In this document: piece after piece, positions 1,482-25,840 of the stretch
Position numbering within the stretch: position 1 is the stretch's first letter
Layout: every line of letters starts with the position of its first letter
Source: Ignicoccus hospitalis KIN4/I
GTDB taxonomy: Archaea > Thermoproteota > Thermoprotei_A > Sulfolobales > Ignicoccaceae
Assembly: GCF_000017945.1 (NCBI RefSeq)
Contig: NC_009776.1
Location: 60,001-92,000, forward strand
Direction: 5' to 3'
DNA length: 32,000 nt
The notes under the pieces: model-generated
Told to the model about the DNA's origin: nothing
What the model saw: the letters and a program-made list of their open reading frames with translations, nothing else
Database searches by the model: none
Made by a program: the position numbers and the translations under genes

Positions 1482-2123
1482 TTGGCGATTCACGCGCGCG
1501 CGATCCGTCTAGGCATTCCGGTGTTCGACGACAGGGTCGGCAACGTCAGCCTAGGCAGCCTCGAGGTTCTCGTGGGAGATAAGGACTCTTACGTGCATTT
1601 GTTTAACTACCTAATAGCCAAGGCGTGGGTTGACAGAGGGGAGAGGGTCGCGTTCGTTATTGACAAGGGCTTCGTGAACGTCCACAGGGTGGTGGCGGAG
1701 AGCTTCGGGATAGACGCGATGGGTCTCGAGGAGTCGAACATGTGGAAGTACGAGGAAGTGGACAACAGCGACGATGCGATGACAAAGGCAATAGAACTCT
1801 TCGCCAACTTCGCGCTCGTGTTGGTGGACGCCACCTCTTGGTTCGACCCGGACCTAACTCTGCTCCACAGGACGATCTCAACCCTCATCAATAGCAACTC
1901 GATAATGGTAATAACTTTGATAGATGAGAGGGTGAAGCCCGAGGCCTTGGGCATCCTCGAGGCTAACGCAGAGTACGTAGTGAGGTTCGAGACTTACTGG
2001 GCGAACTTAAGGGTCGAAAGGATAATGAAGTTGTGTAGGAGCCGTCACCCGACCAACCCCTTCGCCGCGTATTACAGCGTTACCAGCGACGGGATTGAGA
2101 TAGAAGAACTGAAGCGGCTTTGA
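1482..2123 (+). CDS. KaiC/RadB-like RecA-superfamily protein with a degenerate Walker A (probable pseudo-ATPase)
   Basis: 213 aa, TTG start. The layout [29 protein letters not shown] matches KaiC/RadB 'GIPGLDELLGGGLPxGSxxLVxGxxGxGKT', but GxxGxGK[ST] is replaced by GDKDSYVH. A Walker-B-like LVLVDATS is retained. The C-terminus is KaiC-like (R..K.R...H......Y.it..GI.I). Confidence 0.6.
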
Positions 2124-2157: not shown

Positions 2158-2478
2158 ATGCCGCCCAAGAACATGGCGAGGATAAAGATGTGGAGTACGG
2201 ACGTGAAGTCAATAGAGGAAGTGGCAAAACAGATAAGGGAGATAGCGGAGCGCTCGGGCGTAGAGGTAAGGGGCCCCGTGCCCTTGCCCGTCAAGCGCCT
2301 CGAGATATCCACCCTCCGCCTCCCTCACGGCGAAGGTACTAAGGTGTTTGACCACTGGGAAATGAGGATACATAAGAGATTGATCGACGTAGAACTCAAC
2401 GACAAAGTGATGAGGAACATAATGAGGATACGGGTGCCGAGCAACGTTTACATCGAGATCCAGATAAAGAAGGTATAA
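2158..2478 (+). CDS. rps10: 30S ribosomal protein S10 (uS10)
   Basis: 106 aa. [42 protein letters not shown]...[23 protein letters not shown]...[14 protein letters not shown] is the canonical archaeal S10 sequence pattern. Confidence 0.95.
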
Positions 2479-2479
2479 A

Positions 2480-2536
2480 GGGCGATGACGGCGCCGACAT
2501 CGGAGGATCGGTGACTGAGAGCTCTCGCACGAGCCC
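2480..2536 (+). ncRNA. C/D box sRNA candidate A (2'-O-methylation guide), starting 2 nt after the rps10 stop
   Basis: Terminal stem GGGC (2480-2483) pairs with GCCC (2533-2536). C box AUGACGG is at 2485-2491. The 12-nt guide at 2492-2503 (cgccgacaucgg) is complementary to CGAUGUCGGC, a conserved 23S peptidyl-transferase-region motif. D' AGGA is at 2504-2507, followed by a 3-nt linker. C' GUGACUG is at 2511-2517; its positions 5-6 (C,U) can pair with G,A of D'. An 11-nt guide follows, then D ACGA at 2529-2532. Confidence 0.5.
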
Positions 2537-2540
2537 TTTA

Positions 2541-2605
2541 GGAGGAATGATGTGAAACCCCGGTACCGAAGGACGGTGTGGACCAACCCCGCATCTCTGA
2601 CCCGC
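2541..2605 (+). ncRNA. C/D box sRNA candidate B (weaker)
   Basis: C box AUGAUGU is at 2547-2553. A 12-nt spacer precedes D'-like CCGA at 2566-2569. An internal C'-like UGGACCA is at 2579-2585. An 11-nt guide precedes a canonical D box CUGA at 2597-2600. The terminal C/D pair is canonical and the internal pair is poor. I recognise no rRNA target for the guides. Confidence 0.35.
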
Positions 2606-2673
2606 CGCTTTCCGGGACCGACGAGCGAACGCCTCAACCCTCTAACTTTTCTACGAAACGTGGGGCTGTAAAG

Positions 2674-2731
2674 GGCCGATGATCAATACTCCCCAGGTCG
2701 AGGGGTGAGAGCAATTCCTTTATGTGAGGCC
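2674..2731 (+). ncRNA. C/D box sRNA C, a dual guide against 16S rRNA
   Basis: Terminal stem GGCC (2674-2677) pairs with GGCC (2728-2731). C box AUGAUCA is at 2679-2685. The guide at 2686-2697 (auacuccccagg) is complementary to the conserved 16S motif CCUGGGGAGUA. D' UCGA is at 2698-2701, followed by linker GGG. C' GUGAGAG is at 2705-2711. The guide at 2712-2723 (caauuccuuuau) is complementary to the archaeal 16S motif UAAAGGAAUUG. D GUGA is at 2724-2727. Both spacers are exactly 12 nt and the box deviations are compensatory (see findings). Confidence 0.75.
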
Positions 2732-2792
2732 TCAGGGCTACAATGGATCATCATTTAGATCCCGTCAGTCCGCCCATCGGTCACCATCGGTT
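2728..2792 (-). ncRNA. C/D box sRNA D (minus strand), with the D guide against 16S rRNA
   Basis: The minus strand reads ccg-AUGGUGA-ccgaugggcgga-CUGA-cgggaucua-AAUGAUGA-uccauuguagcc-CUGA-ggcc. The C box is the complement of 2781-2787. D' CUGA and C' AUGAUGA are perfect. D CUGA is the complement of 2732-2735. Both guides are 12 nt. The D guide is complementary to the universally conserved 16S motif GGCUACAAUGG. Confidence 0.65.
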
Positions 2793-2805: not shown

Positions 2806-2894
2806 TGGCGCCGGGGGCGGGATTCGAACCCGCGCCCCCCATCAGGGGGAGTGGCTCTCCAGGCCACCCCCTTGGGCCGCTCGGGCACCCCGGC
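2806..2894 (-). tRNA. tRNA-Ser(GGA): tRNA-Ser (anticodon GGA), class II with a long variable arm and an encoded CCA
   Basis: The reverse complement is GCCGGGGUGCCCGAGCGGCCCAAGGGGGUGGCCUGGAGAGCCACUCCCCCUGAUGGGGGGCGCGGGUUCGAAUCCCGCCCCCGGCGCCA. It has a 7-bp acceptor stem, anticodon stem GUGGC/GCCAC with loop CU-GGA-GA, a variable arm CCCCC/GGGGG, and a T arm GCGGG-UUCGAAU-CCCGC. Confidence 0.93.
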
Positions 2895-4060: not shown

Positions 4061-5041
4061 TCAAAGCTTTCTCAGCTTGCAGACGAAGAAGCCTTCGGAG
4101 CCGTGTACGTGCGGCCACAGCCGTCTGCACTTGTAGGCGAAGGGGAACTCCCACCCCAAGTATTCCTCTATCCCGGGCGAGCCGGCCTCTCCCCCATCCA
4201 ATACTTCGACATCGTCCCTCGTTTTGAGGATAGTTTCGATAACCAGTTCGTTTTCCTCCGGGGCTATGGAGCAAGTGGAGTAGACCAGCTCCCCTCCCGG
4301 TTTTAATGAGTCCAAAGCCCTATTGAGGAGCATCGCTTGTACCTTGTGCATGAGCGCCAAGTCCTCGGGCCTCCGGGACCTCTTCCTAGAGGGGTCGCGC
4401 GCTATCACGCCCTCTCCGGTGCACGGCGCGTCTAGTAAGGCCTTGTCGAAGGGGCCGTACTTGGACGCGTTGTAGGCGTCGTCTATTATCACATTTGCGT
4501 TGAGTATCTCCATCCTTTCTAAGTTGCTCATCAGCGCCTTAGCTCGGTCCCTCCTCCTCTCTATTAGTATCAGTCTCCCGCTGTTTCCCATGAGCTGGGC
4601 CAAGTGCGTGGCCTTCCCTCCGGGGGCCGAGGCTAGGTCCGCGACGGTCTCGCCGGGTTTTGGGCCTAAGACCAAAGGAGGTAAGGTCGAGGCCTTGTCT
4701 TGGATGTAGAACCAGCCGTCCAAGTGCTCGGGCGTCGAGGACAAGGAGAAAGGTTCTCTTAGAACCTCGTACGCGTGGGGGCACCAGAGGACTTGCTTCA
4801 AGACGAACCCTCTGCTTTCCAACCTCTCCTTCAGTTTCCCACAGCCGACTTTCAAGAAGTTGCACCTTATGGTCGGCTTCGGGGGAACCTCGAAGGCCTC
4901 GAGCAAGGGGAGGGGGTCGCCGAGCATCTCTCTGTACCTTCTGACCATGTAGGGGAGGTAACCGTACTTCCTCGCTAAGAGCTTGTCCTCTTTTGTTATT
5001 TTCAGATCCTTCAGTTTCTTCAATATCTCTTGGTGTTTCAA
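4061..5041 (-). CDS. NOL1/NOP2/Sun-family RNA cytosine-C5 methyltransferase
   Basis: 326 aa. The SAM-binding segment is VADLASAPGGKATHLAQL. Motif IV is LLDAPCTGEGV and motif VI is LVYSTCSIAPEENE. The two catalytic cysteines are typical of RsmB/F- and Trm4-like enzymes. Confidence 0.85.
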   Translation of the reverse strand: MKHQEILKKLKDLKITKEDKLLARKYGYLPYMVRRYREMLGDPLPLLEAFEVPPKPTIRCNFLKVGCGKLKERLESRGFVLKQVLWCPHAYEVLREPFSLSSTPEHLDGWFYIQDKASTLPPLVLGPKPGETVADLASAPGGKATHLAQLMGNSGRLILIERRRDRAKALMSNLERMEILNANVIIDDAYNASKYGPFDKALLDAPCTGEGVIARDPSRKRSRRPEDLALMHKVQAMLLNRALDSLKPGGELVYSTCSIAPEENELVIETILKTRDDVEVLDGGEAGSPGIEEYLGWEFPFAYKCRRLWPHVHGSEGFFVCKLRKL

Positions 5042-6576: not shown

Positions 6577-6724
6577 TTCGGTTTACACCTATACGTGACG
6601 GATCGGTAGAGTAATTAAGCCTCAGTCCCGGGATAGGCAGTCATCGTTCCTTAAGGGGCGGGACGTCCTCATCGGCGGGAGCCGTTTTTAATTCCCGGAC
6701 AAGCCCGCTTTAGGGACTGAAAGA

Positions 6725-8026
6725 ATGACGAAAAAGTACTTGGTCCAGCACGCTCTGGGGGCGTTCCTGCTCGACCCCCAAGGGAACGTAGAGAGGTACG
6801 AGTTGAACACCAAGGACGTGGACGAAGCTGCGGAACAAGCGCTGGTGATGGAAGGTTGGGTCAGAGGGATGAGGGAAGGCGAGGAGAAGCGCGCCGGCTT
6901 GGCGGCCCCGGCGAGGAAGCTCCTAGAGAATTTAAAGAACGAGAACTTCGAGGGGGTCCTAGTATTCGAAACGGACTCCGAGTCCAGGGAGGCCGCTAAG
7001 CTGGGCTTCGAGGTAGCCGTAGAGCCCGCCAACGAGCCGGCCCGCGCGCTCCGATCCCAAGTGGCCAGCTTAGCGGTCAAGTACGGCTTTGTTGACAGCG
7101 AGAAGGAGTTTTACGAGTGGTTGAGGAGGGTCGACATAGAGGTCGTCAGGAGGAAGCTGAGGAGCGTCGCGCAGAAGAGGGACTTGCTGGCAGCCCAAGC
7201 GGTTAGGAGCATAGACGACATCGACAAGGTCGTGAACTTAATGGTGGCTAGGCTGAGGGAGTGGTACTCCCTACACTTCCCAGAGCTGGACAAGCTTGTC
7301 AAGGACCACGAAGCCTTCGTAAAAATAGTAGCCGAATTAGGCGGGAGAGACAACATTACCAAGGAGAAGCTGCTCGAGCTGGGCTTCAGCGAGGCCTTGG
7401 CTGAGAAGATAGCCGAAGCCGCTAAGAAGAGTACGGGCGCCGACCTAACCGAGACAGACATAGAGCAGTTGCAGAAGTTGGCGTCAATAATAATGAGCTT
7501 GTACAACTTGAGGAGGGACTTGGTCGACTACATAAGCTACATAATGAAAGAGGTGGCGCCCAACGTGACCGCCCTAGTGGGTCCGGTGCTGGGCGCGAGG
7601 CTCATATCGCTCGCCGGCTCCTTGGAGAACCTCGCGAAGATGCCAGCCTCCACGATACAAGTGCTGGGCGCGGAGAAGGCGTTATTCAGAGCTCTGAGGA
7701 CCGGGGGCAAGCCCCCCAAGCACGGCGTGATCTTCCAGTACCCGGACATACATAGGAGTCCGAAGTGGCAGAGGGGTAAGATAGCCAGGGCGCTCGCTGC
7801 CAAACTGGCGATAGCCGCTAGGACGGACTACTTCACGGGCAGGAACATAGGCGAAAGGCTGAGGGAAGAGCTGAGGGCGAGGATAGAAGAAATAAAGAGG
7901 GTCTATGCCAAGCCGCCCAAGAAGACCGAGGAAGAGAAGAAGGCCCCTCCGGCCAAGAGGGCCAAGAAGAGGCCCCCCAGGAAGGGGGGCAAGAAGGGCC
8001 CCAGGAAGGGCGGCAGGAGGAAGTAG
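6725..8026 (+). CDS. nop5: C/D box sRNP core protein Nop5 (Nop56/58) with a Lys-rich C-terminal tail
   Basis: 433 aa. It contains a coiled-coil region and a Nop domain: LREWYSLHFPEL...VGPVLGARLISLAGSLENLAKMPASTIQVLGAEKALFRALRTGGKPPKHGVIFQYP...RGKIARALAAKLAIAARTDYF. The KKxE/KKGP-rich tail is typical. Confidence 0.93.
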   Translation: MTKKYLVQHALGAFLLDPQGNVERYELNTKDVDEAAEQALVMEGWVRGMREGEEKRAGLAAPARKLLENLKNENFEGVLVFETDSESREAAKLGFEVAVEPANEPARALRSQVASLAVKYGFVDSEKEFYEWLRRVDIEVVRRKLRSVAQKRDLLAAQAVRSIDDIDKVVNLMVARLREWYSLHFPELDKLVKDHEAFVKIVAELGGRDNITKEKLLELGFSEALAEKIAEAAKKSTGADLTETDIEQLQKLASIIMSLYNLRRDLVDYISYIMKEVAPNVTALVGPVLGARLISLAGSLENLAKMPASTIQVLGAEKALFRALRTGGKPPKHGVIFQYPDIHRSPKWQRGKIARALAAKLAIAARTDYFTGRNIGERLREELRARIEEIKRVYAKPPKKTEEEKKAPPAKRAKKRPPRKGGKKGPRKGGRRK

Positions 8027-9644: not shown

Positions 9645-9863
9645 GCCCCACCACGCTCCGAGGGTCCCATCGCGGTAATCTCTTCATCGCGCGAGCTCGA
9701 GGGGGGCAAGTCGTTGTCATCCCCCGGTCGCTCTCCTTTGGGCCTTAATTCGTTGACGGCAAGAAGCGCGCGGCCGAAGGGGGTAGGGGGCGCAGCTGAA
9801 GGGGGTCTTCCAGTACAGCTGCACCCAGCCCGGGAACACTTTGACCCTTATCTCGTGCCACCC

Positions 9864-14256: not shown

Positions 14257-14401
14257 GGTGTGTCACGGGGCCCGCGCCCCGTCGTAGTAGGCCTTAATGA
14301 CGAGGGGATGAGCTAGAACTTCCGGCAGCGAACGGTGAGCGACTCTGCCAGCGGCGACCCCCTTTAAGCGTCAAAGCCCATCTGGCTAACGGAACGTCGA
14401 G

Positions 14402-25093: not shown

Positions 25094-25840
25094 TTGAAGG
25101 GTAAGGTTTATCTCGTGGGGGCCGGGCCGGGGGGCGCTTGGCTGGCCCCAGCCGCGGCCTTCGGCTTGCTCCGGTCAGCCGACGTAGTCTTGTACGATAA
25201 GCTCGTGGACAAGTCTCTCTTGTCTTCAGCTTTTAAGGCGGAGAAGGTTTACGTAGGTAAGGCCCCCGGGGCCCACGCCCTGAGCCAAGAAGAGATCAAC
25301 GAGCTTTTGATAAAGTATGCCAAAGAAGGGAAGGTAGTTGTGAGGCTGAAGGGCGGCGACCCCTTCGTGCTCGGAAGGGGGGACGAGGAGTGCGAGGCCC
25401 TCCGGGCGGCCGGGGTGGAGTGCGAGGTGGTCCCCGCCCCCACGTCGGCCACCGCGGTGCCCGCGTGCGCCGGCATCCCGGTAACTAGGAGGAACTTAGC
25501 CAACACCTTTGCGGTCGCCACGGGGTGGGCGGCGGAGGGGAGCGAGAGGCCGAGGTACGGCGAGATACTAAAGGTCGTGGACACTCTGGTGGTTCTGATG
25601 GGGGTTACGAAGGTTAACGAGATAGTTTCAGACATCCTAAAGGTCAGGGACGTTCCCGCAGCAGCCGTGACCAACGGGTGTACGGAAGAACAGAAGGTGG
25701 TGGTCGCGAGGGCGTCGAAGCTGCCCGAGGTAATGGTCCGTAACGGGGTAAAGCCGCCGGCGGTTTTGGTGTTCGGAGAGGTGGTCGAGTGGGCTTGCAA
25801 GGCGGGCACGGTAAGGGACGTGGTAGAGTGCTCACTCTGA
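25094..25840 (+). CDS. cobA: Uroporphyrinogen-III C-methyltransferase (SUMT)
   Basis: 248 aa, TTG start. It has KVYLVGAGPGG, DVVLYDKLV, VVRLKGGDPFVLGRGDEE and VVPAPTSATAVPACAGIPVT. Confidence 0.9.
   Translation: MKGKVYLVGAGPGGAWLAPAAAFGLLRSADVVLYDKLVDKSLLSSAFKAEKVYVGKAPGAHALSQEEINELLIKYAKEGKVVVRLKGGDPFVLGRGDEECEALRAAGVECEVVPAPTSATAVPACAGIPVTRRNLANTFAVATGWAAEGSERPRYGEILKVVDTLVVLMGVTKVNEIVSDILKVRDVPAAAVTNGCTEEQKVVVARASKLPEVMVRNGVKPPAVLVFGEVVEWACKAGTVRDVVECSL

Follow-up and report, generated by a model that had tools for sequence, protein, structure and literature searches.

The interval between rps10 and a tRNA-Ser gene in Ignicoccus hospitalis KIN4/I almost certainly encodes four archaeal C/D box guide sRNAs of the ordinary kind, as indicated jointly by sequence, RNA-seq, complementarity and conservation. 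Earlier publications already describe the four RNAs and most of their targets, as well as the link to tRNA-Ser and the clustering of sRNA genes in twos and threes. Base pairing and conservation make it probable that one of the four, sR205, is a dual guide for ribose methylation of both G26 and G50 in pre-tRNA-Gln. Rather than forming one operon, the sRNA genes are movable modules that have come together in this lineage. The genome is a single contig of 1,297,538 bp with 56.5% GC. Coordinates are those of the window, the whole 32,000-nucleotide stretch that we analyzed, and adding 60,000 converts them to genome coordinates. The features of the locus are as follows.

2158..2478, plus strand: rps10 (uS10) gene (TIGR01046, E 2.9e-43)
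2476..2542 (published span), plus strand: sRNA A, Iho sR204; core 2480-2536 with a 4-bp terminal stem; boxes C 2485-2491, D' 2504-2507, C' 2511-2517, D 2529-2532
2543..2613 (published span), plus strand: sRNA B, Iho sR205; boxes within 2547-2600, C 2547-2553, D' 2566-2569, C' 2576-2582, D 2597-2600
2614..2671, no strand: spacer without a C/D unit by pattern scan, Rfam and conservation; holds a T-rich run at 2645-2652
2672..2736, plus strand: sRNA C, Iho sR09; boxes non-consensus with pairing kept, C 2679-2685, D' 2698-2701, C' 2705-2711, D 2724-2727
2725..2734, no strand: 10-bp palindrome at the tail-to-tail junction of C and D
2722..2791, minus strand: sRNA D, Iho sR11; boxes C 2787-2781, D' 2768-2765, C' 2754-2748, D 2735-2732
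2806-2894, minus strand: tRNA-Ser(GGA) gene with encoded CCA; 14 nt separate its CCA from sRNA D

The four units are identical in sequence, strand and genome coordinates to published sRNAs. Dennis 2015 (PMC4644070, Additional file 1) lists 128 C/D box sRNAs for I. hospitalis, among them RNAs at 62476+, 62543+, 62672+ and 62791-, with small-RNA-seq coverage of 3400 for sR204, 1300 for sR205, 2200 for sR09 and 4000 for sR11. A preliminary description of this DNA, made from the sequence alone, had placed C/D box units at these four positions, and both the boxes and the published sRNAs bear it out. It had treated B as a mere candidate without a recognized target; B is a real sRNA detected by RNA-seq. 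It had also described the 327-bp gap as almost fully accounted for, but the units cover about three quarters of it, and the further unit it suggested looking for in 2606-2673 did not appear by pattern, Rfam or conservation. The T-rich run in the spacer may be a weak terminator or promoter element.

All four units present C, D', C' and D boxes in that order within about 50-70 nt, with degenerate boxes. The C/D motif of A and the C box of D depart from consensus. Guide lengths across the units are 11-14 nt; the 11-12 nt proposed earlier for all guides does not hold for the D guide of B (2583-2596), which is 14 nt long. As expected of archaeal C/D box sRNAs, whose guides run to 10-14 nt, the guides are complementary to host rRNA or tRNA and place a Watson-Crick (WC) pair at N+5. 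Contiguous WC pairs number at least 9 in six of the eight guides, the exceptions being the D guide of A with 8 and the D' guide of D, whose 10 pairs include 1 GU. Across the genomes compared, position 6 of the C box and position 1 of the D box form a WC or GU pair in 32 of 34 motifs (GC, CG, AU, UA and GU all occur), and the GA/GA core is kept in 30 of 34. Because these genomes are kin, the C6:D1 covariation is descriptive, not a statistical test. The predicted C/D and C'/D' pairings are compatible with K-turn and K-loop folds.

We also scanned with a lenient pattern, C-guide-D'-C'-guide-D with a matched guide required, which was devised after the units were known. It returned 4 distinct units at the locus (5 overlapping matches), compared with a maximum of 2 in 5000 dinucleotide shuffles; 3 were reached in 1 of 3931 genome tiles. 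Guides taken singly gave shuffle p-values of just 0.01-0.5. Given these weak single-guide values, the case for the assignment is made by the architecture taken as a whole, by conservation and by the published RNA-seq. Rfam contributed little: only tRNAs, and no family in the sRNA stretch, reached a gathering score. Membership in a named sR family failed, for example RF01133 (sR3), with a best score of 25.9 bits against a threshold of 41, and an affinity to sR3 or sR1 was rejected because the weak matches are confined to the boxes. The degenerate boxes and this lack of an Rfam family would fit chance motifs in a GC-rich intergenic region. That reading is refuted by the published RNA-seq match of all four sRNAs and is further countered by four-genome conservation, box covariation and the shuffle test, leaving it vanishingly improbable.

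Three other published sRNAs lie in the window. Iho sR12, a C/D sRNA at 6613-6676 on the minus strand (66676 neg), sits between a TauE gene and nop5 and is divergent from nop5. Iho sR206 (about 9647-9724, minus strand), in a 219-bp GC-rich gap, and Iho sR301 (about 14304-14365, plus strand) were matched by the lenient pattern too. One more match, at 25667 on the plus strand, has a single 9-base match, is absent from the published list near this coordinate and is probably chance.

The genome encodes all three partner proteins, L7Ae, Nop5 and fibrillarin. The nop5 gene is at 6725-8026 (plus strand) of the window, the fibrillarin gene is at 1275201-1275878 of the genome contig, not adjacent to nop5, and L7Ae-family genes are present. 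L7Ae would bind the C/D K-turn and the C'/D' K-loop, after which Nop5 and fibrillarin would join. Pairing of guide and target would then place a 2'-O-methyl group on the nucleotide five upstream of box D or D'. A gene for an RsmB/F-family RNA m5C methyltransferase (4061-5041, minus strand) also lies near the sRNA cluster and nop5.

To assign rRNA targets, we extracted the host 16S and 23S rRNA from the genome, applied the N+5 rule and mapped positions to E. coli K-12 rrnH. Four guide matches that the preliminary description had proposed to conserved rRNA motifs are real in the host. The D' guide of A (2492-2503) points to 23S U2504 (E. coli numbering) with 10 WC pairs and 1 GU. The two guides of C, D' (2686-2697) and D (2712-2723), point to 16S G886 and A915 with 11 WC pairs each, and the D guide of D (2747-2736) to 16S A1236, again with 11. 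The D guide of A (2518-2528) pairs at 23S G2470 over 8 contiguous WC pairs in I. hospitalis (p ~0.5 alone) and matches this site over 10 bases in two congeners, G002 and G005. The base beside D' in A differs between genomes (G, A, U), which supports the box register.

Alignment of guides to host rRNA and tRNA under the N+5 rule had been suggested as a check, and the resulting sites agree with published predictions. In its own alignment numbering, Dennis 2015 gives G2744/U2778 for sR204, A897/G868 for sR09 and A1223 for sR11 (PMC4644070), consistent with our sites for A, C and the D guide of D. Methanopyrus kandleri sR70 carries guides for both of the 16S sites addressed by sRNA C (G868 and A897 in alignment numbering), but with the guides exchanged between the D and D' positions (PMC4644070). 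Methylation would be expected at 23S G2470 and U2504 through A, at 16S G886 and A915 through C, and at 16S A1236, plus C1402 in part, through D.

The D' guide of D (2780-2769) fits 16S C1402, which is probably its target on the strength of pairing. Dennis 2015 differs here in listing no target for this guide (PMC4644070). Seistrup 2017 (PMC5389701) proposes sR11 for 16S Cm1402, the same RNA and the same site as our N+5 result, and reports this position as less than 50% methylated in I. hospitalis. Cm at position 1402 is known also in P. abyssi, yeast and human (PMC7005279). We consider it unlikely that the guide instead addresses 23S C2558 or the tRNA-Cys intron, or that it acts as a folding chaperone only. 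The C2558 duplex (8 WC pairs and 1 GU) does use an invariant U that is a mere GU wobble on 16S, the tRNA-Cys intron offers 11 pairs with 2 GU, and the sub-stoichiometry of Cm1402 (PMC5389701) could be read the same way. However, pairing at 16S C1402 extends further and is more stable than at 23S C2558 (-19.2 versus -15.6 kcal/mol), and the D guide of D has its target in 16S rRNA too.

A genome scan for better C1402 guides gave one other perfect match, near 509,264. It was rejected because it appears to be RNase P RNA, which we take it to be from its motifs, and it is absent from the published sRNA list. That the sole competing match falls there also argues for C1402 as the site of the D' guide. 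On inspection, 5S rRNA showed no evident match to this guide; its two near-identical genes (contig positions 842851 and 30110) are both unlinked from the 16S-23S operon. The intron-containing pre-tRNA-Cys (contig 56438-56542) pairs loosely with both sR11 guides, over 12 pairs (3 GU) at the anticodon with GU at N+5 and over 11 pairs (2 GU) in the intron, probably by chance.

The guides of sRNA B fit tRNA. Its D guide forms 9-10 WC pairs with tRNA-Gln (CUG, UUG) and tRNA-Pro (UGG, CGG), with G26 at N+5, and its D' guide (2554-2565) forms 9 WC pairs with tRNA-Gln, with G50 at N+5; positions 26 and 50 follow standard numbering, hand-counted from the cloverleaf. Both tRNA-Gln species therefore carry 9 + 9 WC pairs with WC pairing at both N+5 positions, and no genes in the genome other than the two for tRNA-Gln contain both sites. 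The tRNA-Gln target sites are identical in the four congeners. Within the genus, the two-guide pattern matches only the sRNA gene itself and the genes for tRNA-Gln and tRNA-Pro(UGG). On pre-tRNA-Gln, sR205 would open both arms and methylate G26 and G50, and it probably also guides G26 of tRNA-Pro(UGG), as predicted from pairing.

Dennis 2015 assigned the D' guide of sR205 to two 23S sites and left the D guide without a target (PMC4644070). We regard it as doubtful that B is solely such an rRNA guide, with D' directed to host 23S G1146 and/or G2027, sites 993 and 1875 in E. coli numbering, and the D guide an orphan. The D' guide does pair with each 23S site over 9 WC pairs, with energy equal to that of the tRNA-Gln site, and both 23S sites are conserved in the genus (G002 and G005). 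Because they pair equally well and are conserved, both uses, tRNA and 23S, are possible, and the two readings are not mutually exclusive. However, the published assignment did not compile tRNA targets (PMC4644070), and the core of the supposedly orphan D guide is invariant in four genomes and finds its best matches in tRNA-Gln and tRNA-Pro.

A homologue from outside the genus also weighs against a 23S-only role and for the tRNA assignment. Among 301 genomes of the class, we found one sR205 homologue with proper boxes beyond the genus, in a member of another family (G195). It is unannotated, occupies L071:1480-1552 about 45 nt upstream of a tRNA-like gene, retains both registers and lengthens the G26 match to 10 WC pairs. 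At the second position before D' it has A in place of U, a change that suits tRNA-Pro(UGG). A second match to the sR205 pattern, in G216, was without boxes and was judged to be chance.

Guides of this kind have precedents. In Pyrobaculum, same-tRNA dual guides are described as rare, amounting to 4 of 110 families (sR46, sR61, sR123 and sR126; PMC6009581). Both m2,2Gm26 and guided methylation of tRNA position 50 are known in thermophilic archaea; S. acidocaldarius has guides for tRNA-Gly C50 and for tRNA-Gln G18/U34, and G26 predictions exist for P. furiosus (PMC7668247). These tRNA-targeting C/D sRNAs resemble B in addressing positions 26 or 50 or in placing both guides on one tRNA. The combination of G26 and G50 on tRNA-Gln did not appear in the texts consulted. 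Literature searches returned no paper naming sR205 together with Ignicoccus and no tRNA modification data for I. hospitalis.

We compared the arrangement of the locus in I. hospitalis with that in three congeners (G002, G003 and G005), each of which has all four RNAs. Guides and boxes are conserved across the four genomes, and linkers and flanks drift. A and B lie downstream of rps10 in all four. In the three congeners, the UGA stop codon of rps10 is the UGA of the C box of A, and in I. hospitalis the stop is shifted to just upstream of A. sRNA genes that overlap a stop codon, as sRNA A does in the congeners, are also known from Tripp 2017 as reviewed in PMC7994747.

C and D are less constant in position. 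They lie tail to tail in I. hospitalis, G003 and G005, are far apart in G002, and are joined to the rps10 block only in I. hospitalis and G003. At their junction in I. hospitalis, both D boxes are followed directly on the 3' side by GGCC (2728-2731), and the published sR09 and sR11 share 15 nt; the overlap is similar in G003, and the gap is wider in G005. In G002 and G005, the C' box of C contains another gene's stop codon. D follows tRNA-Ser in I. hospitalis, tRNA-Ala(GGC) in G005 and a protein gene in G002, and in G003 it sits in a divergent intergenic gap. A conserved link between tRNA-Ser and sR11 was rejected on these grounds, with tRNA-Ala in G005 and no tRNA at this place in G002 and G003. 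Among the five tRNA-Ser genes of I. hospitalis, inspection found a C/D unit directly downstream of one, that at 2806-2894.

The neighborhood shows further variation. In most other genomes of the order (L007-L021), tRNA-Ser follows rps10 on the same strand at about 30-140 nt. The I. hospitalis tRNA-Ser is inverted and separated from rps10 by 330 nt that hold the sRNAs, and the three congeners lack a tRNA-Ser at this place. The gene before rps10 (1482-2123, plus strand) has no Pfam or NCBIfam match at E 0.001 and is conserved in the same place in all three congeners. We take it not to be EF-1alpha, the usual rps10 neighbor.

The preliminary description had suggested that the sRNAs are processed from the rps10 3' UTR or a polycistronic precursor. 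For A and B this stands: they follow rps10 in all four genomes, and in the published reads sR205 starts at the nucleotide after the end of sR204 (2542/2543). The rps10 transcript is the likely host of both, which would be trimmed from its 3' end. It fails for D, for which an rps10 precursor is impossible because D is on the minus strand behind tRNA-Ser. sR11 and tRNA-Ser(GGA) are likely to share a dicistronic precursor with the tRNA on the 5' side, and D would be trimmed from this opposite-strand transcript. The review PMC7994747 cites a tRNA-Ser/sRNA dicistron in I. hospitalis from Tripp 2017, the same pairing as here with the sRNA unnamed.

For C the suggestion is harder to judge, and we see the case for A, B and C sharing one rps10 polycistronic precursor as evenly poised. 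The common strand and close spacing, the lack of a strong TATA upstream of C on inspection, and a B-to-C gap of about 17 nt in G003 (the equivalent of 2606-2673) support a shared precursor. Against it, C sits apart from rps10 in both G002 and G005, with another gene's stop codon in its C' box, and the published B and C spans are 58 nt apart with the T-rich run between them. C would arise by read-through or from a weak promoter of its own. A sigma-70 promoter scan returned nothing, with a model unsuited to archaea.

In the model presented in PMC7994747, a C/D gene needs only transcribed DNA, and proteins shield the RNA while its ends are trimmed. The arrangement of the sRNA genes here fits this model. 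The locus is a compact example of sRNA genes riding different transcripts, with the same four RNAs found in one to three places across four genomes. If our assignment of sR205 to pre-tRNA-Gln is true, an "orphan" guide gains a target, within the already known rare type of same-tRNA dual guides, and sR205 would provide the ribose methylation in the making of m2,2Gm26.
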